Shown here: in pieces, positions 1-39,740 of the stretch
Position numbering within the stretch: position 1 is the first letter of the stretch
Layout of the letters: the number at the start of each line of letters is the position of its first letter
Assembly (NCBI GenBank): GCA_958009085.1
Contig: OY253689.1
Coordinates: 434,001-477,166, forward strand
Direction of reading: 5' to 3'
Source of the DNA: Protoeuglena noctilucae
Lineage: Eukaryota
Length of the DNA stretch: 43,166 nt
Made by a program: the position numbers and the translations under genes
Notes under the pieces: generated by a model
Told to the model about the DNA's origin: nothing
Databases searched by the model: none
What the model saw: only the letters and a program-made list of their open reading frames with translations

Positions 1-862
1 CCGATTGCGGCAGGATCGTCTCCCTGCCGTTGCTGCTCGATCGATACCACCCGGATTTGGACAGGCTGCCGGGGCTGGTGTTGGATCTGGCGACGAGGGT
101 GGAGTGGGGGGAGAAGGCGTGTTTTCGGTGAGGGTTATGTGGGGGGTGGGGGTGTTTCTGGGTGTTGTTGATGTGAGTGGGTAAGAGTGGTGGAGTGGTG
201 GAGTGGTGGAGTGGGGGGAGGAGAAGGCGTGTTTCCGGTGAGGGGGGGGTGGGTGGGGTGTTGTGTGGGGTGCATTTAAATGATGGAGTAGTGTGTTGGG
301 GATGTTAAGGAATGCTGTTGATATGATTGGTTGACGTGGTTGCGAGGGTGGAGTGGTAAGATGGTGGGCATCAATCAAGCACGCATCGCCCAGCATCGTG
401 CTGTGCTGTCCGTGTCAGCAGCACGATCGCGGAGGCGCTGGCGGACTTCTACCGCCTGCAGCCGCCGATGGGGGAGGAGGGGGGTGGGGGAGAGGGGGGT
501 GATGATAAGGGTCAACATGATAAGGGACATGATGAGGGACAGCAAGGCCAGGGAGTGAATGAGGGACACGAGAAGGGGCGTGAGGGCGTGGCGTTGCCTG
601 GTTGGCGGAGGGACGGGCGGCGGGAGTGGGCGGTGCGGCACGTGGTGATGCCGGGTGAGTGGATGAGATGGGCAGTGAGGGAGTGGATGGTTCACATATG
701 TAGCAGCAGTACATATGTGATATCATTCATCATTCCAACACCTCTCTGCCCCTTGCAGCCCTCCGCTCTCTGTTCAAGCCCCCCGCACATCGTGGCAGGG
801 ACGGCACTGTGGTGGAGGTGACGAGGCTGGAGAAGCTGTACCAGATATTCGAGAGGTGCTGA
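1..862 (+). CDS. MLH1: MLH1 (MutL homolog 1), 3' part; exons ~1-127, ~419-654, 759-862; 5' end lies outside the window
   Basis: Spliced translation ..LPLLLDRYHPDLDRLPGLVLDLATRVEWGEKACF|STIAEALADFY..REWAVRHVVMP|ALRSLFKPP..VVEVTRLEKLYQIFERC*. It ends in the MLH1-diagnostic FERC terminus and has GT-AG introns. Confidence 0.93.
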
Positions 863-1058
863 CAATTGAATAAGGGTGTTAACATGTTTGAGTGAGCACA
901 TGTGCTTGTGGGTATCTTCAAACATCCCCATGCCAAATGCGAGGCCCTCGCTGACACTGCATCGCTCGGCACGGCCGCCCTTGAAACACCACGCGACGAG
1001 GGACGGCAGGAGTGTATTGCTAGAACTGTCATCCCCTTCTGGTCTGTGCCTCCCCCCC

Positions 1059-4000
1059 TCACATCCACTCCCTCATGTGCTGGAACACCCTCGCCAGGTT
1101 CTTGAGGTTGCCTAAGATGTGGCTGTGCTCTAACTCGGCATCTGGGGGAGAGGGAGGGGCACACAGCAGGTGACACGCCTTCATCGCACACTCTCCCCCC
1201 ACCTCACACACAACGTCGCGCCAAGCCCACTCTCTCTAACCACACGCGCACATCCAGTATCATACCAAACACACACACACACACACTCTCCCTCCCCATC
1301 TCTCACCGTATATGCACGTGATGTGCTTCCCATACTCCTCCATTTGCTTGCGGATGGCCTGGTGTGGCAGCAGCACGTCACGACCACCCACAAACACCAC
1401 CGCACCCTCGGGGATGTCCTGGGGGGGGGGGAGATTGGATATGAAAATTCAAATAATATATCTATGCATTTAAACATGGACTTGGTATGCGATGACACTG
1501 AAAAAGAACAGGCATCAGCACACACGCCCCGGCCCACACCCACACCCGCACCCGCACCCGCACCCACTCATCCACTCTTACCTCCGGCCACAGGTTGAGG
1601 GCGTGCCAGTAGAACTTGCGGCACATGGTGGCGGCCAGGCAGGGGTCTCTCCTGCCGATCAGCCTCACGCTGTCCTTTAACAGCGACATGAGTGACTCGG
1701 AGTGGGGGCGCTCGTAGATGAACGCGAACTGGGGGAGGTGGATAGCGATAGATATCAACAGTCGATTGATAAGTGATGCTGTCTATCCCAACCACATTCA
1801 CATTGCAATCACCCTCATGTCCCCCTCACCAGCAGCTGCGGTGCCGCCAGCATCAGGCACGCCGGGTCGAGCATCACGACGTTGTGCACCGCGGATGGGA
1901 ACCGCTTGACGATGCGGGCGAGCACGAACGTGCCGTAGGAGTGGGCCACGAAGACGGCACGGGAGAAACCCTTGCGCTTCAAGTCCCAGACTGGGGATGG
2001 GGGACGGGGGGGGTGGTAGTGGTGAGTGGTGGGTGGGGGAGAGGGGTGGGTATGAATGATGGGCGAAAGATAGTGATGAAAGCATGCAGTGGTGCGCAGC
2101 AGGTGTCATGTTGAGCAGTCACTGCAATCCCCTCACCCACATGCACCCACATTCATGCACTTACATGCAACCCCCTCTCCCCTCCCTCACCACTCCACTC
2201 CCCCACATTCACTCACAACATCCAATCGCATCTACACCCCCTCAACCAACCATCCCTCACCGATCCTCTCAGCCACCTCGTCCGGCGTGGGGACCCGGCA
2301 CACCCTCAGCGCGACCCATGGCATCTCCAGCGTCAGAATGGGGTGGCGGGGGAAGGCGCGCGACAGGCGGCGCAGCAGGGGGAGGTAGGGGAGAAGGCCG
2401 ACGCCGATGCCATGAAGGAACACTGAAAGAGGGATGGGGTGAAATGTTTGAATAGGGATGCACCGCACCAATTACGCTCCCCCACCCATCCCATCCCATA
2501 TCATCCACCGCATCCACCCCATCCCACTCACCAATCGTCAGCCCCCCCCTCTCTCTACCGCACCCATCCCATCCCATCACCCACCCCCTACCCAACCCAT
2601 CCCACTCATCCCCATTCCATCCCAACCCCCCCCAACCCATCCCACCACCCATTCCCACTCACCAATCGGCAGTTTCTCCGCCACAGGCTTCCTCCTCCGC
2701 CACCCCGGCTCCCCCGCACCCATCCCCCCGCCCCCACCCATTGCACTCACAGGCGTCCCCGCCGCACCCTCCCCCTGCCCCTCCCCACCCCCAAGCAGCC
2801 GCGCCACCAGTCCCCCGTCCCCCCACATCGCCGGTAACTGCGGCAGGGATCCAGTCAGCGACCCCAGTGACCCCAGTGCCCTCCCACCGTGCGCCTCGTA
2901 GTATCGCCTTGCGTATGCCTCCGCCATCGCCGGCGCCCCACGCAGCCTGGCTGCAATGCCGCCCCTCAGCGCCGCGCTGCGCTCCAGCGTCGCACCCCAC
3001 GCCTCCCGCATGTGCCGCCGGCTCAGAGACTCCTTGCGGCTGAAGAGCTGCCCGGGGGGGCGCGAGCCGGCCACCGCGAACGCGCCGGATGTGATAAATC
3101 CGTCCAATGACGCAGACGAGGCAGTCGATCGCGGGGAGTCGCAATTGTCATCGGCACAGTCACAGGCGCCCTCACAGGGACAGTCTGCGTGGCTGTTACC
3201 GTTGCCATCAACACCGTTGCTTTTGCAACCACAGTCGCCATCGCAGCGACACTCGCCCCTCTGTTTGCGCATGTGGATGGGCGAGGAGGGCAGCGATGGG
3301 TGCAGGGGTGTTTGGGTCTCCTGGCACCGCCGACCCGGCAATGCGTCACTTGCTATGGGAAGCATGGCTGCTGTTGATGGGGCGTGCGATGCACCATCGG
3401 TGTTGGCCGTCGCGTTGACCGCCCCATCTGCTCCCCCCATCGCACCCCCCATGTCATCACCACTCTCCCCCTCCTCTGCAGACGCATACTCCCACCACTC
3501 ATCCACAGACAAGCGGGGAGGAGTGGAGGGGTTGTTGTTGTTGTTGTTATGAGGGGAGATCAGGCCACCGACATTGCTCGTTGCACCGTCCTCATGCGCG
3601 CCCCCATTCCCCACCCCACCCGCACCGTGCTTGGCATGCCCCACCCCATTCCCATTCTCACCCACCCCCTGCCCCTCATCCCCCACCCCATTCCCACTCC
3701 CCACCCCATTCTCCGCCCCCTCCTCCCCCACCCCATTCCCATTCCCATCCTCACCCACCCCATTCCCCGCCCCATTCCCCCCGCTCTCACGCACACCTTG
3801 CCCCTTCCCATTTTGCCTGGGCGGCAGATGCCAAACTTGGTAATCACCGCTCTTATGGAAACCGTAGATGTGGAGGTGGAAAGAGGACCACAGACCGCAG
3901 AGATAGCTGCGGGGGGAAGGGAGAGGGAGGGGGGGTTAGTGTGAGTGGTGCGAGAGGGTGGGAAGGGGGAGCTTGTATGAGTGGTGCAAGCGGGGTGCAA

Positions 4001-5145
4001 GCGGGGTGGGGTGGGGGGAGGGGCAAAGCTGGGTAGCTGGGGTGTGAAGCTGTGGTGTCTGGAGTCAGTTGCATGGCTCTCTCTTAATCAACAACCATCT
4101 CACCTGAACAGGTACAGCAGCAGCGTGTAGTGCCGCGTCCGCAGTGGCTCCCACGTGTGCATGCGGATGCGCAGGTCGGGGTTCTTCCCCGGGGGGAGGG
4201 TAATGCCCCACGTCGCCAGAATGTCGTCGGTCCAGTGCTCCAGCTCGTCCCCGTAGCCGGCCCTGGGGTTGGTGCGGGGGTGGCAATGGGATAAATGGAT
4301 AGGGTTAGTTGGACATGTTGGTCAATTGCACATGTGTCATCGCAAGTCCGGAGTCATGAAAAGCCATTGTCAATCGTTCATATCCCACTCGCCCGCACAG
4401 CTGCTGTGCACTTGCCACCCACTCCACCCCTCACCTCACCTGTACACCTCTCCCACACACCCACTCCTCACCCCTCTCCCTCACTCTCACCTGTACAGTT
4501 CCTCCGTAGTGCAATAGAACCCCCCGTATGCGATCAGATCCCGGAAGTTGTCCCTCTTCATGGCCGCACGGTCAGCGTGATAGAACCACGGCAGGATGAA
4601 GTCCCACGGATCCATCACGCGGCCTATCATGTAGAGATTCTGAACATTGCGGGCGCCGTCCGTGTTGAGAACGACTGGGGGGGGTGGGGGGGAGGTGGAC
4701 AGGGTGAGGGGTGAGGAGAGGCGAGCGTGATGAGTGACGGGGGTGGGGGGGGTGACGTGGGCGACAAGCATAAGGGGTGAGAATGCCAGTGACCATGACA
4801 ATGACTATTGCGATGAGGTACATAGCAGTGGTGCAGACGACGACAGTTATGGTGAAAGGCAGAACCAATGACAGCGCAACACAATGGGCGTGACAATCGT
4901 TGGCATCCGCGCCGCGCGTCTCAGCTCATGTCCGGGGGGTGGGACTGCGCCGGCTCCGACAAGAGTTCGACTCTCGCGAGGTACACCAGGAAATGGGCGG
5001 CCTCGGCCACCGCCCACACCGCCAAGGTGCCCGCCACGCCCAGCGCATAGAGCAGGGCGAACAGCGTGGCGTTCCATATCCCCAGGATGAACACAACCAT
5101 CAGGTGCGTCCAGTTAGCGTCCGAAACGGGGGCGTGGAGGGCTGC
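1059..5145 (-). CDS. Membrane-anchored alpha/beta-hydrolase fold protein, about 9 exons; true 5' end unresolved (may extend to ~5550)
   Basis: N-terminal hydrophobic segment (MVVFILGIWNATLFALLYALGVAGTLAVWAVAEAAHFLVY), VFLHGIGVGLLPY motif, nucleophile elbow AHSYG, VMLDP, acid motif GGRD and His motif EHSH. TGA at 1061-1059. Confidence 0.8.
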
Positions 5146-7822: not shown

Positions 7823-8091
7823 GGGCGGTGGTGGTAGTAGTGGGTGACGGTGCGTGCTTTCACATTCATAGTATCATCCATAGCGACTGAACGATGGAGT
7901 TGCTTCGATCTGTCCGTGCCAATTGCGATGCGATTTCAAACTCGACGCTGCATTTGAAAGACCCAACGGGCAGTGCCGGCGCTTGCATGTGTGGTAGATC
8001 CCGCTGCATGCGACCCTCGCCATCCGTCTCATGAGTATCACTATCGTCACCCTCCCATCCATCGCCATCGCCCCATCTATCGCCGCTCCCC

Positions 8092-11000
8092 TCACATGGG
8101 CAGCAGGTCCTCCCCCAGCGTCCAATCCTCCTCCTCCCCCTTCCCCCGCCCCCTCCGCTCCCCGTCCCCCTCCTCCTGCACCTTCACCCCCACGTTTACT
8201 GACACGGGCGCCAGGGGCTCCTCTCCCCTCGCCTTGCCCCTCTTGCCCGGCCCCGACTGCGCCTGCTCAGCTGCGTCTGCCTGCGCCTGGGCACGCTGGG
8301 CCTTGGCCAGCTTGTCTGCGATTGACGGGGGGGTGTGTGCGAGGGTAAGATGGCGAGCGAGTGGGGTGGGGGAGAGGTGGGGCTTGGCGATGTCGGGATG
8401 TCTGCAGTTAGTACCCTTAATAACAGCACTTCCACGCTTGTCATTGCGTATTGAGCCTTATGTTATCCAACAGCCCCACACACACACCCAATCCTCTCTC
8501 ACCCGCGTACTTTGCCTCGTCGTTGGTGAACCCCAATTCTCTCCCCAGATCCACCAGATACCGCAAACATTCCACATTATCCGCGTGTCTGGCGTGGATG
8601 GCCTGGTAACGGCGATAGGCGCCGGGGAGGTCGCCGGAGCGACTGGGGGGGGGTATAGGGGGGGAGGGGTGTTGGTAGATGTGATATGGGAGAGGGAGAG
8701 ATACAATTATCGTCAATTACTGGCACGAGCGTACATATGTCATCTACTCTCGCATTCCCATCCACTCATACCCCCACCCCACACACCCCACCCCTCTCTC
8801 ACCGAATGCACGAGGCCGCCATCAGCTCCCACTCACTCACACACACCACCACACCCACTCCACACCCACATCATTCTCTCACCGGATGCACGACGCGGCC
8901 ATGAGTTATCACTCACACCCACTGTCGCATCTCTCACCGAATGCACGAGGCCGCCATCAGCTCCCACTTGGCCTCCGCCGGCTGCAGCTGCGCAAGGATT
9001 TCGAAGAACGGCAGCGCGTCCGCGTAGGCGTTGTTCTTGACGTAGTAGACCCCCAGCCACACCGCCACGTCCATCGACGCGGGGAACACGCGGTAGGCGT
9101 CCTGAATGGGGGGAGAGGGATGGGTGATGATGGTGGGGTTACATGATCAAATGACTGTGGCAACACACTCATGGCACGTGGTGGGCGTCCTGGGAAAACA
9201 CAGCGATGGGATTATGATTATAATTGTGTTGGTGTTGGGTTTATAAAGGGTGTATTGTCGTGCGGTAACACTCGTCGTTGTGCCATACACACGCACAGTG
9301 CTCTCCCCTTCCCCTCTCATTGGCATATGCACGTCCACACACCCCCACATCCACCCACTCACCAGGAACATCCTCAGTGCCTTCCCCTCGTCCTGCTGCG
9401 CTGCGTGGATGCCCCCCAGCTTGACCATCAGAGAGGGATCGGCACCCAGGAACATCTGGGCAGACGCCTGCTCCAGCCACTGCGGATGAGAGATGGGAGT
9501 AAGGTGTATATTGAGAATGGTTATAGCAAGTGATGGTCGCCCAGAGGGATCGGCACCCAGGAACAAGGGATGGGTCTCAAGTGACACGGTGGGTTGAGGG
9601 GGTGTAGAGAGTAGAGTGGGACCGCGAGAGCGTGGCTGACAGTGAGGGGGGTGTACACAGAGTAGTGGGGTGAGACAGAGCGAACCCCAACACTGCACCT
9701 GCAACCCACACACGCACCCCCACCCCTCCCTCACAACACCCCCACACATGCACCCCCCCCCCACACCCCACCCCACACCCCACCCCCCTTGCCTTGACGC
9801 ACGACCGCACCCCCTGCCTCCTCCTCTCCCCTTCGAACTGCGTCAGCTCATAGCATAAAGCGATCTGCACGTGCACGTCCGGCGCGTCCGGCATCAGCAG
9901 GGCGAGCTTCTTGAAGCGGCCCATGGCCTCGCGGACGCGGTCGCTGCGCCACTTGTGTTCAAGTGATGTCCAGTCGATGGCCGCGGGGTCCAGCTGGGGA
10001 GGGAGAGAGGGGGGTAAGATTGAGGGGTGGTAACAAGTGAGGCAAAGGCAATGGTAGCTGTATAGGTCTGTCACCCCACCCACCCCACCCCTTGTGCACC
10101 GCCCCATCTCACATCCATCGCATCCCCACCCACCATGCACATCTCCCTCTCTCCCATTATCCCTCACCTCCCCCCCGCTGGACAGGTCCCTCAGCGCCAG
10201 TTTCCTGGCCACCAGCCCCGCGTTGTAGAGGGCATCGGCACAGTCGGCCTCCACCTCCAGCGCACGCTCGTACTGACTGAGAGTGGGGAGAGAAGGGGAT
10301 GTGTTGATGTCATTGTCTGCCACCTCCAGCGCACGCTCGTACTGGCTGGGGGGGGGGGGGGGGAGAGTGATGAAGGAAATGTGTTGCTATGCTTCTCATC
10401 CATGCTTACCGCAGCGCCTCCTCCAGCTCCCTCATTCACCACACACAACAACAAACACAGCCACCATTTATCACCCCATCTCTCCCCTCACCGCAGTGCC
10501 TCCTTCAGCTCCCCTCACACACTACACACAACACCTCCCCTCATACACACAACACATCACCCATCCCTACCCCCTCCCTCACCGCAGCGCCTCCTCCAGC
10601 TCCCCCCCCGCGGCCATCACGTTCCCCCTCGCCACCAGCGCCTGGGCGTTGTAGGTGTCAGCCGCCAGTGCCAGATCGGCGTTTCGCCTGGCAGCGTCCA
10701 AATCGCCCTCCATGAAAGCAATGGAAGACAAGGAGCCAGCCGCACGGGCGCGGAGGTCCTGGGGGGGAGAGCGGGATGGGGGGTGTTCAGTGAATGGGAG
10801 GTTGTGATGCGAAGATGTGACACTTTCTGAATGCAATTGAAGACAAAGAGCCGGCAGCGCGGGCGCGGAGGTCCTGGGGGGGGGAGAGGGGGGTAAGGGC
10901 GGTGATGTGGGTGAGTGAGTGAGTGAGTGAGTGAGTGAGTGAGTGAGTGAGTGAGTGAGTGAGTGAGTGAGTGAGTGAGTGAGTGAGTGAGTGAGTGAGT

Positions 11001-12156: not shown

Positions 12157-12212
<56 letters not shown>

Positions 12213-13554
12213 ATGCACCCCATCTCCTCGCCTTGATGGCCTTGGCGTACTCCCGCTGCTCAAAGAGCGCCCATCACACATCATACACCATGCATCCCCA
12301 TCTCGCCTTGATGGCCTTCACATGATCGGAACATGCATTATGCACTTAGCTCCCCCCCCTTTCCCATCTCGCCTTGATGGCCTTGGCATACTCCTGCTGC
12401 TCGAAGTGCACGTTCCCCATGTTGATGCGCACGCGGGCGGGGTGCTGGAAGGCCTTGCCCTCCCTTAGCATCTGCGTGTACACCGACAGCGCCTCCCCCA
12501 GCAGGCCGTTGCGGTGCAGGCAGTCACCCAAGTGGAACTGCACCGCGAATGTCAGGTCCGTGTTCTGCATCGCCTCCGCTAGGCCCTTCTCCTGGGGGGG
12601 TAATGGGGTGGGGTGAGGTGGGGGCGACTTGCGATGTGAGCGGGGCAAGGGTATGAGGGGGGAGGGGGGTGCGGTGGGTGCGTTGCGGTTAATCAGTCTC
12701 CACACAGCACCTAGGAACTGTAAACTAACCACCCTGTCCAAGCACTGCACACACCCATCCCCCCTCACCTCTAAGAACCGCACCAGCGCCCTCTCCCTCT
12801 TCACCGCCTCCTTCGCCTTGTCGAGCGCCCCAGCCAGATTGCCCTGCCCCGCCAATGCAGCGCTCTCCTCGAGTGCCTCGTTTGCCGCCAGCTCCATGTC
12901 ACGCGCACGGGCCTCGGCGCTCCTCTCGATGCGGGGGGCGCCCACGCCGCCGCGAGCGCCTGGGGGTTGGGGGGGTGGGGGGGGTGGGTAGGGGTGCGGC
13001 GGTGGTGGGGGCGGTGGTGCGAGGGCTGGACTAGCCACTGTTGCTTGGCTGAGCCGGTCAACGCGAGAAAAGGCTAGGCCAATCCAAGTGTGCACCCTGG
13101 TGATGTGCCCACCTACCCCCTCCATCCCTCACCGAGTGCCATGGGGTCGAACGCCGCCCTGCCGCCCGGTGCCGCGAGTGCCCCCGTGGCGGGGGGGCGG
13201 CTGGTGTACCCAGCGCCGCGGTTGGACGTCATCGGACGGCCGCCCCCGAGACCGCCTGACCCCGTCACGTCCGCATGCCTGGCCATGGCGCTGGGCGGAG
13301 GGATGAAGCCGCCGCCCGGCTGCACGCGGGGGGCGCCCGCGGCGGTGCCCAGAGGCGGGCCGCGCTTGCCGGCGAACGCCGTGGCGCCGGGGTCCGGGGA
13401 GGGCGTCGTGGCGTCGTACCCCGCGTAGAGGTCCTCGTCCCTCTGCGAAAACGAAACGAAACAAGCGGGAGTTTGCAGCGCATTTATTTCTGCAACGAAC
13501 GGCGACGCGCGCGGAGGATGCGACACTGCGGGGACTCGCCGTGGTGCCTGCCAT
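8092..13554 (-). CDS. IFT88: Intraflagellar transport protein 88 (TPR protein), about 13 exons
   Basis: MAGTT|RDEDLYAGYD, RPMTSNRGAG, RVRINMGNVHFEQQEYAKAIK|MWRMAVDQ, KWELMAASC, HADNVECLRYLV and C-terminal DWTLGEDLLPM* are collinear with Chlamydomonas IFT88 as I remember it. Confidence 0.95.
10911..11126. repeat. (GAGT)n tetranucleotide microsatellite, about 50 units, inside an IFT88 intron
   Basis: Directly visible, with a few GGGT/AAGT variants at the right end. Confidence 0.97.
12159..12211. repeat. (CA)n microsatellite in an IFT88 intron
   Basis: Directly visible. A shorter (GT)n lies at ~12003-12024 in the same intron. Confidence 0.95.
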
Positions 13555-14837: not shown

Positions 14838-17800
14838 ATGAGCAAGACGCACCCGGGACACCCCACGCGGTCGGGCGCGCCCAGTCGCGCCGAGGACCTC
14901 GAAGCAGGGCTGAAGGCGGAGCAGCAGAGGCGCCAGGCGAGGGACGCGCGGGTCTCGCATCGATCCCCCTGCGCTGACGGCCCGCTGCGTCCCCCCGGAT
15001 CGTTCGTGCGATTGCGACACTGCATATGCGTCCCATATCCGCAGGCCATGTGGCTCCGCCTCGGCAAATGGCTCGTCGTCGTCTCCCTGGTGTGTCCCGC
15101 GCTCGCCCTCCTCTTTGTGTATCCGACCCCGACTCTCGCGTTTGCTCTTCTCTGCCTACCGCTCTTTCACCCCTCTGCCCCCTCTTGCCTGCCCAGGTCG
15201 GCGTGGCTGGCTTCGCCTTTGCCACCGCCATCCTCAGCACGGGGCTCTACGGCCCAGGTGACAGTCCCGAAGTAACATGACCATTTCAATCATATATTAC
15301 ATCATCTCTGTCGTTCGCTATACCATAACACTCCCCACCCCCCTCCCCTCTCCCCCAGTCAAGATCGCCCATGACGAGAACCACCGCCCCCCCGTCCTGA
15401 TCGACGACTACGAGGAGGCGTGGTGCGAGCTGGACATGTTCAGCATCCCCTACGCATTCGAGCAAGTCACCTCGATTCCCAACCAGTGCTGCAACCTCCA
15501 GGGACAAACCTGGGACATCAAGTACGACTGCTGCGACATGTACGTCAACGTGTGGCCCGCCTACAACGAGACGGACTTCGCCAACTACCTCGGGTACACC
15601 TCCATCCGCAAATTCAACTGCAGCCGGCAGCCCACGACCTTCGTCGAGGTCCCAAGCAACTACGCCCCCGTACCGCAGCCCACGGGGACGTTCACCTACA
15701 ACGGAACCTCCATCAACCCCCAATCCCTCCCGCCCCTCGCCCCCGCCAACGCCACCCCGCGGTCCACCGTCCCCGTCGATCCCCTGGGCACCCCCACGCC
15801 GCCGCAGGGCACCCGCGCAGCCACGGGGCCGGGGGGTGGCGGTGGTCCCGCACCCACCACGGCGGCCGGCGCACCGCAGCCCGGCGCCCCGCAACCCGGC
15901 ACCCCTCACCCGGCCACGCCCATGGGTGGAGCGGGCACGCCCGCCCCCGGGGCCCTGCCCCCAAGCACCGCTGCGCCCGGCGCCCCTCACCCGGCCACAC
16001 CCGCCCCAGGGCCTCAGACGCCCGGGCCGCACCCCCTGCCCACGCCCGCTCCCACCGCCCGGCGCATGCTTCGTGGCAATTCCGAGAACGAGAATCCCGA
16101 TACCCCCGGTCGCTCCCTTCGCTTCCTCCCGTCCCAGGACGCGGGTCAGTGCACGGCCGGCCACCCCTGCGCGTGCACCGAGTGCGTGTTTGGGTGGGTG
16201 ACGGCCACGGGCGCCTTCCAGGGCGACTGCGTGACGTGCACCAAGGATGTCGCCTACGCGACGCGGTGAGAAGGGAAATGAATGGAGATGTGGCTGCAGT
16301 ACACCATGCGACAGCAGTCACGCTTCCATCTCACCCATACGCTACTGACAGGGTCTCAGGGTCAGTGTCCTTCCCTGTCCATACCATCACCCCCATGAGA
16401 TGCGCCGTCATCAGATGCACCATGCATTTCAGACACTACTCACACACCCAGTGCCATCACCCCCCCGCAGCCGCGAGTGTCGACGTCGTCCCAGGTCCAG
16501 CCGGCCTGCAACGCCGCGACCGACACGTGCACGTGTGGTGCGTGCGTCTACACAGACACCTACGACCCCGTCACGGGCAACTACGCGGGCAAGCAGCTGT
16601 CGTGTCAGGCGTGCACGCGCGTGGCGGACGTGTTATTCCAGGAGAACAGCCAGGACCTGGCGGCGCTCGATGCGGGTGAGGGGGAGGGGGGTGGTGGTAT
16701 GTGATGGGTGGGGCCAGAGGAGCAGGGGTGTGAGGGTGACTGCTGGCATGGGTGATGCGGGTGAGGGGTGCGGTCGTATGGCAGTTGATGTGGGTGAGGA
16801 GGGAGAGCGATTGCCATTTAGCAAGTCCGGCTATCTCACACGTCACGCACCCAGTCACAGTATACTGACCACTCAGTATACTATGACTAGTCTCTCATCC
16901 CCCTTTCCCCCCCAGTGTGCTCTGGCCTCCCCGGCGCCAACTGCGCCTGCGAGTGGTGCGACGACTGGGGCGGCCAGGACGGGGACGTGCGGTGCGGCCA
17001 CTGCTACGCGGCAGCCACTCCCGCCTCCGCCCCCGGCCCCGCCCCTGCGCTCTGCTCCGTCGATCAGCCGTGCTTCTGCTCCAAGTGCGAGGCCGTGGTG
17101 GTGCGGCCGGGGGCGTCGGGGACGTACCTGAAGTGCGACAAGCGATACTGCACCACGGCGTCGCTCGTGGGGGACCCCAACGCACCCACGGGGTTCGTGG
17201 TGAGAGCAGGGGGGAGACAGGAGACATGTGCATGGCGAAGGGGCCCTTGCGCGGTCCGGTCGAGTGTTGATGCGGGCGCTGCGATGGCTGCGGATGTGAC
17301 AGATGACACGCCCCGACTGCCCCTGCTCTCGCGTAACCCGCCTCTTGCACCATGCTGTGTTACAAGCGCACCGTCACCTGACATCGCTTGCACCATGCTG
17401 TGTCCACGCACCGTCACCTGACCTCGCATATCTCCCTCCTCCCCCCTTCCTCAGAGCACGGAGCTGCACACCGGCTTCCGCACCATGCTCCCCTGGCGCG
17501 TGCGCACCACCAAGGACTCCCCCGGCCTCGAGTACCTCCTCCCCTTCGACTACGCCAACTTCACGTACGTGTCGTCCAGCGACGGCAACCCCTGCCTGCC
17601 CAGCGGCCTGCTCTCCTACGGGTGGCACCAGCCCACCTACGCGGTGAGGGGGGGGGGATGCGACACAGTGGTGTGTGGGTGTGGGTGTGGGTGCTTGGCT
17701 GCAAGGTGAGGGAACGCGACTTGTGTGGTGTGTGTGTGTGCTTGGCTGCATGGAGACTCGATTGCACACGCTTTGTCTCATGTCAGTGAGGGTCTAGTCT

Positions 17801-24101: not shown

Positions 24102-24675
24102 CGCGTGGTGGCTGAGGGATGAGCGAGGCCGAGCAGCACAGCCACGCAATGCTGCAGCGCATGATAGCCAAGTGAGGCCGAGGGACGCGTGGCTGCGCAG
24201 AGGCTGGCCCCTCGCGACATGCGATATGTGACCTGTGACCTGCGACCCTCCCGCCACGACGCCTGCCACGACTGGCTGTCGGGGTCGCCGCATCAGTCAC
24301 CGTCGTGCCACACTCTGCAGCACGGCGTGTTTCTGATGCAAGCGCTTTACCCCCCTTTGATTTGTGACACGACCTGATCTCTTGCATGCCTTCCCAGCCA
24401 CCTCGGCCCTGTGTTCTCTGTTCCCTGTCTTTGAGCCCTGCCGACGGGTATGGTATGGCTGACCATGCCGACAACGCATTCGCGATAGCGGCGCAACGCG
24501 CATGTTGCGGCAGTTGAACGACCCTGCATGCGCACGCCCGAAAGCCACTGCAGCTGCCGACCGACCAGGGCGCGCGCTCGCTCACACGCAAGAACGGGAC
24601 GGCCGCATCCCCCCTCCCCCTCTCCCTCTTCACTGCTCGTCTGTACGCTCGCGCTAATCCTTCCCCTGAGCAGTC

Positions 24676-25750: not shown

Positions 25751-27110
25751 ATGAGCAAGAAGAAGGGGCTATCGCTGGAGGTGCTGGATCGGCACGCTGC
25801 TGCAATGGCCGCTCGCACCTCGCGCGGTCGATGTCCGCCCTCCCGGCCCAGCCAAGCAATTCATTGCCGCGCATTGGATCGCAGGAGAAGCGAGACAAGA
25901 TCCTAGAGGTGTTCCACGAGTCGAAGGAGGTCTTCATCCTCAAGGTGCGCGAGGGTCGGGTCCTCACGCTGCGCGCGGCGTGTGGCTGGCCGCGCCTCCT
26001 GCGGCCCAGACCCGGAGCGCTCCGCCGTGTCCTCTGCGCAGGAGGTCGAGAAGAAGGCGGCGGCGAAGGGCGTCGTGCTCCAGAGCGTGAAGGACGTCCT
26101 CCAGACCCTCGTGGATGACGACCTGGTTCACCAAGAGAAGGCACGACCCCGGGCCGCGTGGGCAGCGGTGCGGGACCGGCCGAGACTTGTCACAGGACTG
26201 TGTCTTTGTCTCTCCGCAGATCGGCACCACCAACTTCTTCTGGAGTTTCCCCAGCGAGGCGGGCGTGAAGCTACAGCAGGAGCTGGGGCGACTGCAGGCG
26301 CGAGGGGAGGAGCTGCGGGCGCAGGCGGAGCGGGCAAGAGAGAGCATACGCGCTGAGGTGCGAGCGGGGCAGTGCGGGGGTCCCTAGCACGGTCCCTGCT
26401 GGTCTGGTAGCAGGCTGTTGGGCCCAGCGTGACCGTACCATAACGGTTCACACATTCCATCATGCGTGCCGTGCCTGGCTGTTGTCGCAGGGACAGGGGA
26501 AGGAGGACTCGGAGGAGCGGAGGAGACTGGTACAGGTGTGGTGCAGCCACGGCTGCCAGCTAGATGCCGCACCCATGCGTGCGTTGACAAGCCCGCGATC
26601 CCCACAGTGCCGTGCCCAATTTCGACACCAACACCCTTTCTCCCGCCTTCATCGCAGGACCTGGAGACCCTCCGCGCCGAGCACGCCTCCCTGCGCGCGC
26701 AGCTGCAGGCGTTGGCGGAGAGTGACCCCGAGGCCGTGGATGCGATGCGTGAGGCGACGCGGGTGGCTAGGGACGCGGCCAATCGGTGGACCGACAACAT
26801 ATGGTGCCTGGCCAGCTGGGTGAGGGGTCGGTGGGTCATGAAGTGCGTGGTTAATGGATTGATTGGTTGCCTGGCCAGCTGGGTGAGGGGGCGGGTCATG
26901 AATTGCATGGTTAGTGGAATGAGTGGTTGCATGAGTGGTTGCTTAGCTGCGTTGAGGGGCAGTTAGGGTACAGGTATCGCGGAGAGAGTCACACTCTGCC
27001 TTTGCTGTGTTATCCCGCAGTGCAAGCGCAAGTTCCAGGGCCGGGAGAAGGAGCTGGAGAAGTTCTTCGAGCAGAATGGCATCACGGATGCCCTCGATTA
27101 CGTGGAATGA
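25751..27110 (+). CDS. MND1: Meiotic nuclear division protein 1; exons 25751-25780, 25885-25944, 26042-26140, 26220-26357, 26491-26535, 26658-26819, 27021-27110
   Basis: MSKKKGLSLEEKRDKILEVFHESKEVFILKEVEK..KGVVLQSVKDVLQTLVDDDLVHQEKIGTTNFFWSFPS..AANRWTDNIW..LDYVE* matches MND1 throughout. Confidence 0.96.

Positions 27111-27129: not shown

Positions 27130-27178
<49 letters not shown>
27130..27178. repeat. (GT)n microsatellite between the convergent 3' ends of MND1 and SEPSECS
   Basis: Directly visible. Confidence 0.95.
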
Positions 27179-27179
<1 letters not shown>

Positions 27180-27390
27180 AGTGAGTTGGGCGATACTGCG
27201 GGGTTCGCCGCTTGGGTCCAGTCCATGCGTTCATGCACACGACTGCGCTTTGCCTCGCGCTTTTCCGTATTGAATTTAAGCGCCGCCGCTGCCTTGGCCA
27301 CTGCTCATGGCTGCCTGCGGAGCGACCCAGACCGTCTACGCAAAAGCCCCTCTCTCAACTTGCTCGCTCCCCCACCCCGCACCGCCGCTG

Positions 27391-30300
27391 CTAGCTGTCC
27401 CCCGCGCCCCACATGGCCGCCACCACCACCGAGTCGTCCTCGCCCCCCTCCCAGTCCCCATGATCCAAGTCTCTCTCCCCCTCCCCCTCCTCCTCCCCCT
27501 CTTTGTCGTCGTCCACCCCACCCTCGGGCATCAGGGCCGGGAGTGACGTCGACGCGGCATGGGACGCCTTGAGACGCTCGTACTCCCGCGCCAGGCGCTG
27601 TGAGGGCAGAGGGCGATGCATGGTGCGTATGGGCGCGAGGCCATACAAAACCAAACGCGCCCATCACTACCGCGTCCCATACCACCCCACACACCACAAC
27701 TGCCCACTGCCCCCCTCCCCCTCACCTCCACGAATCAATCCACCTCCTCCATCTACCCACTGCCCACTGCACTGCTTGCTGAGCACTGCACTGCTAAGTG
27801 CCCACTCCCACCCCCTCCCCCCCTCACCTCCACGAATCGGTCCACGTCCTCCCTCTGCCCCCCCAGCGCCGCCGCTGCCGTCACGTACACGTGGCCGTAC
27901 CCCGCCCGGTGCGCCCCGTACCCCTCCAGCCGCACCCCGCCCACCGTGGCGTCCTTGCCCACAACCACGCGAGCCCCGGACACGCGGCGGAGGAAGAGGC
28001 GGGACCCCAGCATCGTGGCTGAGGCGGCCTGCGGGTGAACAGAGCGAGCATCCCGGGGCTATCGGCTCAGCGCATGGCACGCGGCTGCCGGGGTGCGTGT
28101 TGGGGATGAGCCCTGCTAGGCCTGTGGCACCCTAGCCCGTTTGCATGGAAGCTCGGTAGTCGCCTAGATCACAACAGTGCGAGGGCGGCTGCGTTATCTC
28201 CGACTCGCCTGCATGACGTCCAGCGTCATGGCCACGGATATGGGGTTGCGTGGCGTCACCAGCACACGCTCCCCCAGGTGCTCGGCCACCGCCTGCGGAC
28301 AACGACGCAACACGGCATGCGTCAGAGTCAAGAGCCATTAATCAGTCCCCATCTGTTCCTCACACCCCCTTCATCTCACCTGCACCCGCTCTGTGCATCA
28401 CACTCCCCACCCTCACCCCCCCCTCACCCCCACCCTCACCTGCATCTTCTCCGCCAAATAGTCGTAGAGCTCTGCCCGGCTCTGCCGCACCGCCTCCCAC
28501 CCCGCGCGCCCCCAGTGCAGCAGCGTCATGGCCAAATCCAGCACCGGAGACATGCCCGCGCGGCCAGGCCACAGCTGCTTCACCGCCTCCACAGCACCTG
28601 GGGGGGGGAGGGCAGGGAGCGCGTGTGCTGGCATGCACTTGCCTAGCCCCCTGAGGTGCTTCCCTCTCCGTCACTCATCACTCCGACCCACGCACAGTAC
28701 CCGTGCAAAGCACTCAACTCGCAGCACCCCGGATCCCTCGCGCCGCCCAACATCCCCACTTATCACCCGCACAATGCTCTCGCACCCCAGCCTACCCCAA
28801 CCCATCCCACCCCACCACCCCTCGCCTTCCTGTCCCTCGAAGTCGCACACCAGCGCCCCCCCCACGGGAACCATGAAGTTTTTATCAGTGCTCTGAACAC
28901 CAGCCGTGACCGTGCCGCGTCGCGCGGCGGTCCCCAGCTGCTGGCACAGCCACGCGCTCTGCACGCCGTATGCGTGGTTGACCACGTGCATGGTGCCCAG
29001 GCGGCAACACATCCTGGCCACCTGCAGAGAAAGGGCAGGGGCGGGCACACGTAACGCACCACCACCGCAACTGCGCACGGGGGTCGCCGCGTGCAGGACT
29101 TGGGAGGTCCTATCTCGAGCAGTGCACGCAGCAAACACAATTAGACCCCTCCCTCACCTCCACCACCAGGTCGCATCCCCGGGGAGCGAAGCAGCTCGTC
29201 GTGGTCACCACGCAAAGCACGTTGTCGACGCTGGGGGGCGAGAGCGAAGCGGAAGGGGATGAGTCAAAGACAGAACAGCTGAGGGAGTGCTGGAGTCTTA
29301 GCCATGCCAGCTTAGCAGCCGCGCACCCGAGGTCGGCGATGGCCTTCTCGATCCCTGCCAGGTCCGTCACCAGCTCATCGCCCTGCAGAGAGGGGGAGGG
29401 GTCGTGGGAGCGTCACGACTGACACGGCACGCGAGTGTCATCGTCAAAGGCCGAGACACAACATTCAGCAACAACCACTTAGGCCATCAGCCACTAAGTT
29501 ATAAGCCAGCCAGCCGAATCTGTGTGTGTGTCATTCCCTCCTCTTTAAGTGTCCCTCGCCTGCATGACGGGCTCCACGACGCATACCTCGAGCCCCGCGC
29601 TGAGTATGGCCTTGAGGCACGTCTTCTGGTCGATGCGGCTCCACACCACGAACCGCGCCCCCGGCCGCATGGGCCGCAGCGCCAGCAGCACCATCATCAT
29701 GGCCACGCCCGTGGCGGCAGGCAGCACCACCGACGACGCCACCTCACGCATCCCAGCTTCACTGCGGGCGGGGGGGGCGCACGGGCACGGCTGGTGACCA
29801 ACGGTGCTTGCCCTGCCTCATTGCAGACGCTTGCCGCGCCAAGACCGTCGCAGCCGCCCAGCCATCGGCTCTTCACAGTCGACCCCACTGCCGTCGACAC
29901 CACTAAGCACACAGCACCCCAGGCAGCTCCCCCACACTCCTGCCCCATCCGCGCGCCCAGGCGCGCACCGCAGCGCGTCGGTGGCCAGCAGCGACGCGAC
30001 CTTGAGCAGCAGCGACGAACCCGCCGCCTTGGGCTGCTCCGCTGCCACGTCGCCGCTGCGGCCGATGCCGTGGGCCAGACCCAGCGAACGCGCCCGCACC
30101 AGCGGGCACGCGATGCGGCCCTCGCGCTCCCCGACCCCGGCGTTTCCTGTCGCGAAGGGGAGAGCGAGGTGAGTTGGACACATGCGATCCAGCGAAATCG
30201 TCGCCGCAAGCCGCGGTGGCGACGGCGCACGATTGGCCATCCCCCTGTGGCCTTGGGTCGTGGGACGGGCTCCCGTCCAGGCACCTGGGAAATTGTTCGA

Positions 30301-34160: not shown

Positions 34161-37100
34161 ATGTCCGCGCGCATCTGGGCCTCCCCGGGCTCCGCAGCCG
34201 CGCTGTCACAACTATCGTTTGCCGCTAGTCGTCGACACACGGCCCTCATCCTCCGCGCCTCCTCGGAGCGGCGGAGGGGCGACGTGGCTGCACCTGGCCA
34301 GGCACGGGGACAGGCAGGCAACGAGGGGGGATCGGGCGAGGGGAGGAGCGGCGGCCGGCAGCGAGATCCGGGGAGCAAGCGAGGTACGCAGAGACAACCG
34401 GGGCGCTGCCGCTGATACGCTGCCTTGCATCGATTGCCATGGCACACTGGGCTGCGTGCCACCCTTCCCGTGCAGGGCCGGGGGGGGTCTCTCTTGCGGG
34501 CGGTAACGGCGCTCCTACCCCTTCAGATGCGTTTGGAGCATTTGAGGATGAAGAGGTGGGTGTAAGGGGGTTGACAGGCTGGCTGGGGGTCGCGTGCAAT
34601 TGCGGCGTATGGGCTGTCCTGTTACCTGTGCCTCCCATCACCTGTGCCTGCACGGGTCGATGGTGCGTGTAAAAGTGGTCTACGCATGTGTTGCAGGTCT
34701 CACGCTTCCTGTCCGGCGCGCTTGATGCGAGGGGCGGTGTGGGGCGGGGGCGCGGGGGCCGGGGCATGAGGGGGCGGGGCGGGGGCAGAGGGGCCAAGGG
34801 CGGGCGCGGCGGTCGCAGTGGCGGTGGCGGTGGCGGCGGTGGTGGCGGGCAGCGGGAGGCGCGTCGCGGTGGCAGGGGTGGCGGTGAGAGAGGAGACGCG
34901 GGCGTCGCGAAGAGGGGAGGGAGAGGGATGAGTGGGCGTGAAGAGGTGAAAGAGGAGGGGGGGAGGGAAAGTGAGGAGGATGAGGTGGAGGGGACGGGTG
35001 GAGAAGAGGAGACGGTGGTGGAGCAAGGCCGGGGGGTGGATCACGACGCGGGCGATGATGCGATCGCGGGAGAGAGGGAGGGTGAGGTAGCAGTGGAGGC
35101 ATCGAGCGTGGGTGCAGTGGCGACGGGCGAGGTGCCGGGCAGCATGCCGGGCATGGATGGCGCGCCCCCTGCCCCTCTGAGCGTGGAGGACGAGTCGCTT
35201 GTGTCGCTGGGGTGGGCGGGGGTGTGCCGGCAGGTGGCGTTCTTCTGCCAGACTCCGAGGGGGTTCCTGGGGGCGCTGGGGGGCGGGGTGCGGGTGGGGA
35301 GGACGCGGGAGGAGAGCGAGGCACTGCTGGGGGAGACACGGTGAGGGGGAGAGGGAGGGAGTGCGGCATTGTTAGGGAATACTAGTTGTGCAATATGCAC
35401 CCCTCCTCTTGGTGAGTCTCATGACACAACTCACCGCGTCCCTTGCCCGCCCCCTCTGCGCAGAGAGGCCATGGCAATGATGGCAGCAGTCAACAGCGCC
35501 CCCCTCCCCCTCCACGCCCTGTCCTCTGTGCTTGACGTGGCGCCGGCATTGCGGGCGGCGCGTGCGGGGCGCGTCTTCACGCCGCGGCAGGCGCAGGGGG
35601 TGGCAGACACAGTGGCGGCACTGGCGGAGGTGGCGGGGGCGGTGATGGCCGCGAGAGGGGCGCTGGCGAGGGGGGCGGAGGTGGCGGGGGTGGCCCTTGG
35701 GGACCAAGAGGCGAGGGCGCGATGCGTGGCATGACGCATGAATCGATGGTGGAATGGCATGGGTCATGGGTTGTGCATCGCATGCTGTATGTACGGGGTG
35801 GTTAAGCGGTAGCAGCACGCAGTTGGTAATCTCTCCCTCCACACCCCACGCCCACCCATTCCTCCCTCCCCAGGTCGCGTCCCTCTCTCGCCTCGCCTCG
35901 TCTCTGTCGCGGTGCGTGTCGGGGGGCCGCGTGGCGGATGGGGCGGACCCATCCCTGCCGACGGTGCGGGGGGAGCGGAGGGCCAACGCAGAGGAGCTGA
36001 GGAGGAAGGCGACAGAGATGGCACGCGCACTGTTCGCCACAGGTGAGAGGATGCGGTTGATGAAGGGATGTGTTGTTTGGCACCAGTGGAAGCATGTGTT
36101 GAGGTGGCGTGATGATGGGGGGGAGCGATGCGGTGGTGACGGCCACGTCATGTCGCAGACTGTATGGCCCAGTTCCCTCGCTGCATCATGAAACGCTCTC
36201 CTCCCTTCCACATTATACACAGTATGCTATCAAAGCCTTCGTTGCCCCCCTCTTTACTCCCCCCAGGTGCCCTGGAGCGCCCCCAGGTGGTGCAGCGGGA
36301 GGGGCGGTCGTGCCTGGCCGTGCGCAGTGGGCGCATGGGGGAGCTGTCCAGGGGGGCGGTGGTGCTGGGGACGTCGAAATCGGGGCAGACGCTGTTCGCG
36401 GAGCCGCCGGAGCTGGTGGAGAGGAACAACAGGGAGCAGGGTGAGTGGAGATGGCATGCGGTGCGGATGAGCGATGGCACCGACGACGGAGGACAGGTGC
36501 TGTTACGTGCTGTGGCGCTATCAGATATTGTCACTTCATGCCTCACTTATGCTCTCTGCCCATGCTCTGTGCCCATCCTGCCACCCGATGCCTCACTTAC
36601 GCTCTGTGCCCATCCATCATTCCAGACCTGTCGTCGATGGAGGCGGAGATCGAGGAGAGGGTGCTGAGGGGAATGACGCGCGACGTGGACACGCACGCGG
36701 ACCTGGTCGTGAGACGCGGGGTGCGGGGGATGCATTTGTCCATCGCGGTCACCTTGGCTGCAGGGCAGGATGAAGTGCAGCTGCCTCGTCCCACTGCACC
36801 ACCCCTGTGCACCACCCTTGCGCACCATGCCCCACTGTGCCACCCCACTGCGCCCCATGCCTCACTCCTAACCCACTCTCCCCTCTCCCCCAGCTCCGCG
36901 CCGTGTCTCTCGCTTCCCACGTGGACATGGCCCAGGCGCGCGCCCGCCACGCCGCGTGGATGCGGTCCTCGGACGTGCGACTGTGCGGTGCGGGGGAGGC
37001 GCCGCTGCACCTGCCCGGGTGCCGGCACCCCGTCATGATGGAGGCGGGGCTGCCACCGCTGCCGCAGGCGAGGGGGAGAGAGAGGATCGCAGCACATCGC

Positions 37101-39740
37101 AAGCACCCTGGCTCACCAACAGACGCGGTCAGCTCCCAGCACGCATGCTCGGCGCTTCCCCTCATTCTCACACGCGCGTGATGTCTGCTCCCCCAGGCAC
37201 CCCCCTCTCTGCTGATGGAATTCGAGTCGGATTACCTGGGACCCGTGGGGACGCTCGGTGGCCCCAAGGGGGCGGATGGGGAGGGGCGGGAGGGTGCGGC
37301 AGGGGGGCAGTGGGACGAGGCGCGGATGCCGAGGCCGGTCGACTGGGTGGTGCCGGAGGGGACGCGGTGAGTGAGTGGAGATGACTGCATGGTGGGACGG
37401 GTGGCGCGACGGAGCGGGGTGCGCTGGTCGCCGCCTGCATGAGGGCCGCTTGCAACACTAAACCACCCCCCAACCCCTGCTTGTCTTCTGCAGCGTCGTC
37501 GCCATCACGGGTCCCAACACGGGCGGCAAGACGGCCTCCCTCCTCGCCCTGGGCCTGGCGTCCCTCATGGCGCGCGCGGGGCTCTTCCTGCCCTGCTCCG
37601 CCAGCATGGGCCTGCCCCGCGTGCCGTGGTTCGACGCGGTGCTCGCGGACATCGGAGACTCCCAGTCCCTCGAGCAGAGCCTCTCCACCTTCTCCGGACA
37701 CGTGCGCAGGTGAGCACACCATGCGACGTGACGTGTGACACGTGTGACTGCGCGCGCTTCCTTGCTGAGTCCATGACCATGCACCCGCGTGTCTCTCTGG
37801 TGACTGCGTGCGCTTCCATGCTGCTTTGCATGACCGTGCACCCGCGTGTCTTTCCGACCCAGGTGCTCCCGCATCCTCTCCCGCGCCACTCCCCAGTCCC
37901 TGGTGCTGCTGGACGAGGTGGGGTCGGGCACGGACCCAGACGAGGGGGCAGGTGAGAGGGGGTGCTGTGGATGTAAGAGTCAGAAGTGGGTCTGCCTTGT
38001 CGCAGTCTGTCTGTAGGGGTCGCGAGTGGGTCTACTTTGTCGCATCTGTGATGCAACCACGCATCGCGTTCCCCCCGCAGCCCTGGCTTGCAGCATCCTC
38101 CTCCACCTCCGCGACACGGCCGCCCTCACCGTGGCCACCACGCACCACGCAGAGACCAAGGCCATGGCTGGCAGCGAGGCGAGTGGCAGGGGCAGGTCGT
38201 GTTGTCACCCATGCACCTGCGACTGCGTCTGGCCCAACCATGCTATGCTCTGTCTCCCCAGCCCGGCTTCGCCCGTGCCAGCGTAGGCTTCGACACGCAG
38301 ACCCTGCGCCCCGCCTACGCGCTGCTGTGGGGCACGGCGGGCGCCAGCAATGCCCTCGACATCGCACAGGCGCTGGGATTCGACCCGGCGGTCGTGGAGG
38401 TGAGCGGTGGAACGGACACACGCTCGTGTGGATGTGAGCGGTGGGGGTGGGCGTTGGACTGGACACACGCTCGTAGGGATGTGAGCGGGGGGCAAGTGTT
38501 AACACCGTGGCATCGGGATACGACAACCCCTCCCACTCTATCGCTGCAAGACCGTGGCATGTCGACGACAACCCGCTTTCGCTCCTCCCCCTTCAGGAGG
38601 CGCGGGCGGTGGCGGCGGGCGTGGGGGTGCGCGCGCTGGCAATGGGCAGCTCTGGCGCGAGGGGGGGGCTGGCTGCTGAGGTGGCGGAGGCGCAGCAAGA
38701 GGCAGAGGCGGCCAGGGGGCGGCTGTCGGCACTGCACGCGGCGTTGGATGAGACGCGGGCGCGGAGGGCGGAGGTGGAGGGGTGGGACGCGGGGGCGGCG
38801 GCGGAGAGCGTGGCGGGGGAGGTGGGGGAGGAGGCGGCACGGTGGGTGGCAGAGGCAGAGGTGAGCGGCGGGGAGTGGTGGCGCGGCAGGCCGTAGCGCG
38901 TATGGCTGCGTCCCGTGTAGCTGCGGTGTGCTGGTGAGTAATCACGCATGCAGGTATGCGTGTGCATGGCCGTGCCCGTCACTGCCCCTATCGTCGCCCA
39001 CACCGCAGCGGGGCCAGGTGTCCGTGGATGCCGCGATAAGCGCATTGGCGGCGATGGCGGGGGAAGCACGGGAGCGGGTGGCAGCCGCGGCGCCAGAGTG
39101 GGCGAGGGCGGGAGGGGACGGCGTGGATGGCGCGGGCGAGGCGGGCGGCGGGAGGGAGGGGTGGCGCCCGTCGGTCGGGCAGCGGGTGCTCGTGGCGGGT
39201 GCTGCGGGCGCCGAGGGGGTGGTGCGCGCGGTGGGCGACGCGTGGGCGGTGGTGGCGATGGGTGCCGTGGAGACGCGGGTGGGCAAGGAGCGTCTGCGGC
39301 CGTGGGACCCCCAGGGGGCAGAGGGGGCGCGGGGCGGGGGGGGAGCGGGGGGAGGGCAGGCGCGGGGGAAGGGGCCGGAGCGCCTGGCCGCCGCGGCAGA
39401 GGCAGTCAAGCAGCGGTGGAAGTGGGCGGGGAGGGGGCGGGCGGGCGGGGCGGTGGCACTGGCGGGGGCGGGCGGCGGGGGCGGCGGGGGCGGCCCGGCG
39501 ATCGCCACGTCCCGCAACACGGTGGACGTGCGCGGCATGGGCGCCGAGGAGGCCGCGGAGGAGGCGGCGCGCGCCGTGGGGGCGGCGGGGGCGGGCGGCA
39601 CGGTGTTCATCGTGCATGGGGTGGGGACGGGGCGCGTGCGTGACGCGGTGCGGGAGCTGCTGGCGAGGGACGCTCGCGTGGCCAGCGTGGCGTACGAGGA
39701 GGGCAGCCAGGGGGGCTGCTCCGTGGTGACCCTGGCGTGA
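34161..39740 (+). CDS. MUTS2: Plastid MutS2 with C-terminal Smr domain, about 15 exons; start codon inferred
   Basis: [17 protein letters not shown]-terminus, [11 protein letters not shown], Walker [57 protein letters not shown], and Smr motifs [17 protein letters not shown] at 39738-39740. Confidence 0.93.

Follow-up and report, generated by a model that had tools for sequence, protein, structure and literature searches.

Introns in a 43,166-base stretch of the Protoeuglena noctilucae genome (contig OY253689.1, positions 434,001 to 477,166; hereafter the window) repeatedly contain short copies of the exon-intron junctions that bound them. Strong copies occur in six genes (MLH1, a hydrolase gene, IFT88, an orphan gene, MND1 and SEPSECS), are placed locally around junctions and occupy introns that are longer than the others; at three junctions (2663, 10758 and 10276) RNA evidence supports use of the outermost splice site. 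On the IFT88 sense strand, copies of an exon end plus donor lie downstream of the real donors, and copies of an acceptor plus exon start lie upstream of the real acceptors. We consider it fairly probable that these copies arose by short-range duplication and patch copying of junctions, and that they were tolerated since the inner sites stay silent.

Detection of junction copies

The genes of the window are interrupted by short introns, at least 60 in about a dozen genes. IFT88 was identified by a match to chain 8bd7_A (E = 1e-20); 11 introns were read, and the joined exons form an open frame of 803 codons terminated by a stop codon. Nine introns were read in SEPSECS, and five introns of the hydrolase gene were set by RNA joints. 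Pfam searches of single exons matched SepSecS, a DnaJ domain, a GNAT domain, the alpha/beta-hydrolase fold, the Smr domain (the end of MutS2) and a Mnd1-type leucine zipper. The remaining gene models were predicted with a small program of our own, trained on the introns of IFT88, SEPSECS and the hydrolase gene. Among them is the orphan gene (16066-24101, + strand), with a predicted cysteine-rich product of 1,157 residues and 18 introns; a Pfam scan of one of its exons (94 residues) returned no family, and its reading frames at the copies are the only open ones there. The resulting curated set comprises 60 introns, 51 with GT and nine with GC donors. The GC donors typically read AAG or CAG followed by GCGAG, and the one at 11206 was confirmed by an RNA loose end.

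A self-comparison of the window detects the copies independently of any annotation. It returned 16 high-complexity local repeat pairs (≥37 bits) at spacings of 25-375 nt. No such pair appeared in any of 20 shuffles that kept dinucleotides within 100-nt blocks, and none was present in the window at spacings above 375 nt, so the repeats are real and strictly local. For a test centred on junctions, probes of 45 nt of exon and 10 nt of intron from each of the 120 junctions were aligned to their own intron, and as a control to the 59 other introns. The control reached a maximum score of 16 over 7,080 comparisons, whereas 13 of the 120 probes (nine donors and four acceptors, in 12 of the 60 introns) scored 17-39 against their own intron. 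Introns with strong copies had a median length of 306 nt, compared with 192 nt for the others (P = 3e-5).

Collecting every local alignment with a score of 14 or more yielded 19 copies, each with 7-46 exon-derived nucleotides and with scores of up to 40 (Table 1). Eighteen of the 20 copies listed by a sequence-only reading of this DNA pass that threshold. The remaining two do no better than controls: 4436-4446 scores 12, below a null maximum of 13, and 38427-38443 equals its null maximum of 13.5. The latter is the MutS2 copy; strong copies occur in six genes, compared with at least seven genes in the earlier count. The same reading had the copies usually including a splice site; 17 do, with that site 44-173 nt from the real one, and 9543-9565 is a piece of exon interior with none. 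A weak acceptor copy with two missense differences (9175-9192) and the coding-end copy of the orphan gene (24142-24172) add to the earlier list. Around the MutS2 position, the intron sequence 38415-38495 (+ strand) consists of two tandem units, each opening with a donor-like GTGAGCGG motif that resembles the real donor; these units have almost no exon-derived part.

Table 1. Positions, sources and differences of the copies and related duplications in the window.
Feature	Position	Strand	Sequence copied	Differences and remarks
MLH1 copy	205..244	+	exon end 98-127 and donor 128	1 synonymous difference, one 3-nt insertion; score 26.5
MLH1 second copy, marginal	343-356	+	14 nt	score 14; new beyond the earlier list
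Hydrolase copy	2522..2541	-	exon end 2663-2672 and donor	1 missense (P>T); part of a tandem unit, spacers alike (z = 8)
IFT88 copy	8795..8833	-	exon end 8938-8968 and donor	identical over 39 nt
IFT88 middle copy	8875..8905	-	junction 8938-8968 again	4 of 4 differences third-position and synonymous
IFT88 exon-interior copy	9543..9565	-	23 nt of 9432-9454, in the upstream intron	identical; without splice site
IFT88 acceptor copy	10320..10348	-	acceptor and exon start 10251-10276	1 synonymous difference
IFT88 copy	10405..10431	-	exon end 10583-10605 and donor	exon part identical; donor reads GTAAG
IFT88 copy	10485..10514	-	second copy of junction 10583-10605	E>K and 1 synonymous difference
IFT88 acceptor copy	10828..10882	-	acceptor and 46 nt of exon start 10713-10758	6 of 6 differences third-position and synonymous; spacer not alignable (z = 0.3), similarity stops abruptly
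IFT88 copy	12227..12268	-	exon end 12373-12409 and GC donor	2 synonymous, 2 missense; tandem unit (spacer z = 5.7)
IFT88 copy	12297..12318	-	22 nt of the 12373-12409 GC-donor junction	identical
Orphan-gene short copy, marginal	16754..16768	+	7 exon nt and donor	score 15, null maximum 11.5
Orphan-gene copy	19188..19221	+	exon end 19106-19132 and donor	2 synonymous and K>R; donor weakened to GTCAG
Orphan-gene, two copies	19551..19621 (19551-19572, 19588-19621)	+	exon end 19495-19518 and donor	jointly 2 synonymous, I>M and L>Q
Orphan-gene acceptor copy	22553..22576	+	acceptor and 14 nt of exon start 22635-22648	tandem unit of ~75 nt (22498-22648)
Orphan-gene coding-end copy	24142..24172	+	last ~ten codons and stop of 24065-24101, 77 nt downstream in the 3' flank	2 synonymous, 3 missense, one codon missing; stop codon kept; no splice site
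MND1 copy	26868..26890	+	exon end 26805-26819 and donor	exon part identical; tandem unit of 60-63 nt, spacer matching at 31 of 37 positions
SEPSECS copy	27717..27758	-	exon end 27828-27860 and donor	1 synonymous, 2 missense, 2 nonsense
Intron-internal direct duplication	36538..36613	+	26 nt, two copies	no exon part
Similar intron-internal duplications	22796-22919, 37744-37851			no exon part

The copies are not an artefact of one assembly, because independent contigs reproduce the covered regions. Nearly identical sequence is present in marine metagenomes and metatranscriptomes. DNA contigs of sample X1 cover 8939-10905, a stretch that holds five copies together with their originals, without a single difference, and the independent metagenome X5 covers 2035-2706, 8939-9729 and 9799-10347, likewise with none. 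In the stretches that they cover, the short-read contigs of the two samples answer the concern, raised with the original observation, that the tandem copies were misassembled. In either sample the contigs end at 8804-8824 and 8939-8959, the two members of the identical 39-nt pair; one X1 contig of 156 nt spans the two.

Structure of the copies

The spacer that follows a copy was clearly similar to the one that precedes it (z > 5) for five of the 19 copies (2522, 12227, 19551, 22553 and 26868); z was 2.8-3.1 for two copies and below 2.3 for 12. As judged from this alignment, the first five are true tandem units of roughly 45-140 nt, and others would be patches, or are too old to tell. The copies at 10405 and 10485 form a tandem array, as the ends of successive units are alike. 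At the MND1 locus short repeats are nested, and a TGGTTGC motif is common to the unit borders. Eight of the 19 copies match the exon perfectly across 7-31 exon-derived nucleotides but have differing flanks, a pattern that suggests patches copied recently, or exchange among the copies.

Local copying also acts away from splice sites, as seen for the end of the orphan-gene coding sequence (24142-24172) and for the intron-internal duplications. After both stop codons (24065-24101 and 24142-24172), short motifs recur in permuted order.

Splice-site use at copied junctions

All 17 junction-including copies keep GT, GC or AG, and both copies of the GC-donor junction in IFT88 (12227-12268 and 12297-12318) retain GC. 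Scored with our own weight matrix, ten of the 17 inner sites either exceed the real site or fall short of it by no more than 5 bits. The inner site is the stronger one at 8795 (17.5 versus 16.2), at 10828 (22.5 versus 20.3) and at 22553 (13.1 versus 5.6); in the last case, which of the two acceptors is the real one depends on the predicted gene model. Some copies lack a consensus donor and read GTCAG, GTGGG or GTAAG.

The RNA evidence supports the outer sites. The joint 2422/2663, found in contigs of two metatranscriptome runs from one study, shows that the hydrolase intron was spliced from its outer donor. Loose ends at 10760 (X8 and X11) join the real IFT88 acceptor at 10758 to the upstream exon, and a loose end at 10277 does the same for the acceptor at 10276. 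Among the RNA joints and loose ends listed for 1-10905 there was no sign of inner-site splicing, in contigs that drop rare isoforms. For 14 of the 17 splice-site-bearing copies, splicing at the inner site would shift the reading frame or introduce an in-frame stop. The other three would add 63-72 nt in frame and free of stops: the acceptors 10320-10348 (69 nt) and 22553-22576 (72 nt), and the donor 26868-26890.

Synonymous and non-synonymous differences

The sequence-only reading had described pervasive, mostly synonymous divergence of the copies and concluded that they were once translated, on the basis of a tally of 18 synonymous to 3 missense differences in eight copies. Our recount of these eight gives 19:5. 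The original tally missed or left out H>L, I>M, L>Q and P>T as well as the SEPSECS copy (1:4, two stop codons included). An unbiased tally over all 19 copies (429 exon-derived columns) contains 31 differences, of which 20 are synonymous, nine missense and two nonsense; codon positions 1, 2 and 3 account for 4, 5 and 22, respectively. Indels in the exon-derived part are whole codons (205-244 and 24142-24172). Marginal copies, if added, bring mostly non-synonymous differences, and several of these may be chance matches.

When mutation is allowed in the intron copy only, the synonymous excess is strong (P of about 1e-6 to 3e-5). This one-sided null is wrong, as the exon copy changes too, and only at synonymous sites. 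The earlier expectation that neutral decay should give mostly missense changes ignored the same drift. In the corrected null the synonymous share is 2S/(2S+N), which raises the expectation from about 25% to 0.37-0.44 and places the third-position share at 0.44-0.46. Under this null the count of 20 in 31 has P = 0.002-0.02.

The whole synonymous excess stems from IFT88, mainly from two of its copies, and is not pervasive. IFT88 shows 14 synonymous to 3 non-synonymous differences, compared with 6:8 in all other genes together (Fisher P = 0.03). The ratio outside IFT88 is what neutral decay combined with exon drift would predict, and the SEPSECS copy in particular looks like neutral decay. That a copy was templated by a coding sequence, or once belonged to one, stays a live reading for the copies at 8875-8905 and 10828-10882 alone, and the broader inference finds weak support, in IFT88 only.

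Origin of the copies

We infer both how the copies formed at the molecular level and that they are neutral. In the scenario that we favour, stretches of 20-140 nt at exon-intron borders would be copied repeatedly, without inversion, to sites some tens of bases from the original. Part of the events would be simple tandem duplications that repeat the entire unit with its spacer; others would be short patches of 22-39 nt placed at an intron motif resembling a splice site. Replication slippage, microhomology-mediated template switching or break repair could produce such structures, with later exchange between the copies. A copy that straddles the border would put a second exon end and splice site inside the intron. 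If the spliceosome uses the outermost site, copies of this kind would be harmless and survive, and other placements would be removed. The inner copies would then be silent decoys that decay and lengthen the intron, and the exon partner would be free to change at synonymous sites only, which by itself would raise the synonymous share of the differences to about 40-45%.

Several observations weigh against this scenario. The excess at third positions persists under the corrected null (22 of 31, P = 0.002-0.004). In the copies 8875-8905 and 10828-10882, all ten differences are synonymous and at third positions, of which there are ~23, with none among 46 first and second positions; the corresponding P of about 4e-4 under the corrected null applies to a pair chosen post hoc among 11 diverged copies. 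Simple duplication and decay does not predict these two copies, which remain unexplained. Junction copies (12 introns) also outnumber interior-only duplications (three listed introns and 37744-37851) despite the use of 326 interior and 120 junction probes, and survivorship together with slower decay accounts for this excess only in part. We observed neither de novo events nor length polymorphism nor breakpoint signatures; where the contigs of the two samples (X1 and X5) cover the window, their lengths agree with it. G-quadruplex motifs were not significantly linked to 5' copies (4 of 9 versus 9 of 51, P = 0.09). Finally, the models beyond IFT88, SEPSECS and the hydrolase gene are predictions of our own program, which matters most for the 18-intron orphan gene.

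The ten silent differences raise the alternative that some copies, especially 8875-8905 and 10828-10882, were templated from, or once formed part of, a diverged coding version of the same exon. This version could be allelic or paralogous, could stem from a hybrid partner, or could be a mutually exclusive exon copy that has since been lost. Third-position divergence is similar in the two (4 of 8 and 6 of 15), their exon-derived parts are 83-87% identical although the spacers cannot be aligned, and both the restriction of indels to whole codons and the difference between IFT88 and the other genes would fit a coding template. We nevertheless regard this origin as fairly unlikely. No diverged homologue was found, and the window holds no comparable repeat more than 375 nt away. 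A metagenome scan with an IFT88 exon returned one unrelated contig of 74% GC without local repeats, and a protein search returned one distant match (54% identity, Pedinophyceae) and no orthologous DNA to polarise the changes. Present-day diversity is tiny, with one difference between X5 and the window in the covered parts of the first 10.9 kb (1-10905). No evidence was found for the diverged alleles that had been proposed; a third-position divergence of 0.4-0.5 lies far beyond that of ordinary alleles. The SEPSECS, 12227-12268 and orphan-gene copies show ordinary mixed changes, the marginal copies add mostly non-synonymous ones, and the two telling copies were singled out after the fact. By eye, the differing third positions showed no GC-versus-AT direction, and CpG transitions do not account for them. 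We also think it unlikely that border repair or exchange sometimes copies a junction from a diverged coding template, whether an allele of the past, a sequence from a hybrid partner or an exon duplicate since lost. If it did, introns would hold dated 'fossil' exon ends, with the two IFT88 copies as the first examples.

A function for the inner copies is, in our view, quite unlikely. One possible role is in alternative splicing, where they would yield in-frame insertions or regulated unproductive transcripts; another is as decoys that recruit splicing factors and help define short GC-rich introns. Their strong consensus, which in several cases equals or exceeds that of the real site, would fit such a role, as would the three stop-free in-frame additions and the abundance of GTGAG in the first halves of introns (30 occurrences versus a shuffle mean of 18.1, at the upper limit of the shuffles). 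Against this, most inner sites would break the reading frame, the listed RNA evidence backs the outer sites (weakly, as contigs drop rare isoforms), consensus has been lost in some copies and the SEPSECS copy carries nonsense changes. A role at the RNA level would moreover not specifically spare first and second codon positions.

It is very improbable that gene conversion with the exon keeps the copies coding-like, with copies that carry a non-synonymous change acting as harmful donors and being weeded out in a very large population: the eight identical copies within diverged flanks do suggest ongoing exchange, but a conversion rate that lets 40% of third positions diverge would, by rough inference, leave a selection coefficient far too small, and the SEPSECS copy is unprotected. 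To misassembly, misalignment or chance resemblance between low-complexity sequences we give almost no credence, since the two earlier-listed copies that do not exceed controls and the low complexity of the G-rich or C-rich intron ends are outweighed by contigs, shuffles and other-intron controls, which refute it for the 17 strong copies (score ≥17).

Should duplication and patch copying prove general, several consequences would follow. If one intron in five genome-wide carries junction copies, border duplication would be a main growth route for short introns. It could also help explain their G-rich starts and C-rich ends (in the 60 curated introns, G makes up 46% of the first 60 nt and C makes up 47% of the last 60). 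The copies offer a natural test bed for how the spliceosome ignores near-perfect inner sites. They also mislead gene finders, as initial runs of our predictor picked inner sites in IFT88. If the possible coding-type divergence in IFT88 holds genome-wide, introns would record past exon alleles.

Comparison with known systems

Local duplication spanning an exon-intron border is a known kind of event; here it is frequent and affects both intron ends. Our literature search returned no description of pervasive junction copies in introns, or of copies common across a genome. The nearest precedent is the minisatellite of human F7 intron 7 (PMC1557585). The first of its 37-bp units spans the exon 7-intron border, and the near-identical pseudo-donors after the true donor stay silent, the most upstream site being chosen. 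At least five copies in the window (2522, 12227, 19551, 22553 and 26868) are built in the same way, the 10405/10485 array has similarly alike unit ends, and the pseudo-sites are near the true site in sequence and strength (ten of 17 within 5 bits or above). In contrast to F7, which is one locus in one genome, the copies here affect 12 of 60 introns and acceptors as well as donors. Their units are irregular (44-173 nt), usually with one or two extra copies and with some short patches that lack a unit, and no copy-number polymorphism was seen in the contigs of two samples.

Introns are also reported to arise when an AGGT-containing piece of an exon is duplicated, segmentally or in tandem (PMC3265369). 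There, as here, a local duplication supplies a second splice site from gene sequence. In that model the duplicated exon piece becomes a new intron, whereas the duplications in the window lie inside an existing intron, which they lengthen without changing the coding sequence. We rejected AGGT-segment gain as the source of the copies, which sit inside introns of 201-448 nt that are otherwise not derived from exon sequence, and each of which repeats the site type of its neighbour. Tandemly duplicated, mutually exclusive exons were rejected likewise, as each copy has at most one splice site, 7-46 exon-derived nucleotides and no whole exon.

Introners are transposon-derived introns for which target-site duplications of 3-9 bp supply a splice site (PMC9860276; PMC9481584, Supplementary Note 3). 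The setting is similar, a marine alga whose short introns (~200 nt) use both GT and GC donors and have direct repeats at their borders. The copies in the window differ in consisting of 7-46 nt of locus-specific exon with a full splice site, and in lying inside the intron rather than flanking it. A shared element was rejected because, within the window, introns had no similarity to one another and no high-complexity repeat lay more than 375 nt apart. Target-site duplication was rejected as well: runs of identity between exon end and intron end measured 1-2 nt in 49 of 60 introns and at most 5, with no target-site-like repeats other than the AG/G consensus, and those between the start of the intron and the start of the next exon measured 0-1 nt in 56 of 60. 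Terminal inverted repeats found no support either, with a mean pairing energy of -32.6 kcal/mol between the ends of the same intron compared with -32.1 between introns (P = 0.38); intron-end pairing is a generic effect of G-rich versus C-rich composition. The introns of the window therefore do not act like members of a single transposon family.

Templated insertions and small tandem duplications made by polymerase theta or microhomology-mediated end joining share with the window short direct copies of nearby sequence and microhomology at the borders, and would fit the identical 22-39 nt patches. That mechanism is known from induced breaks and does not predict a bias towards junctions.

Other features of the window

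The G+C content varies from 59 to 73% across the window. Together with the telomere repeat and the mixture of GT and GC donors, it resembles what has been published for Pelagomonas calceolata (PMC9481584), for which, however, 0.45 introns per gene are reported, far fewer than the 60 or more in about a dozen genes here. In the second halves of the 60 curated introns YYCAG was under-represented (14 versus 26.8 expected). Positions 42936-43166 form a (TTAGGG)n telomere tract whose inner edge contains degenerate repeats, so the window is a chromosome end and every gene discussed sits within 43 kb of the telomere. The 448-nt IFT88 intron that contains the copy at 10828-10882 also holds a 220-nt four-base microsatellite (10907-11127), which reads TGAG on the + strand and CTCA/CACT on the IFT88 sense strand.

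Contig depth rises about a hundred-fold in X1 and several hundred-fold in X5 at 1457-1820, mainly at 1533-1567, where a CACCCG-type low-complexity tract lies in a hydrolase intron and many unrelated loose ends are found; this tract is a simple repeat common to much other DNA. A low-complexity coding stretch at 3640-3790 (- strand), rich in Gly, Asn, Val and Glu with repeated GNGVG-like units, sits between a membrane-like N-terminal part and the hydrolase domain, and 1059-5100 may be one gene or two.

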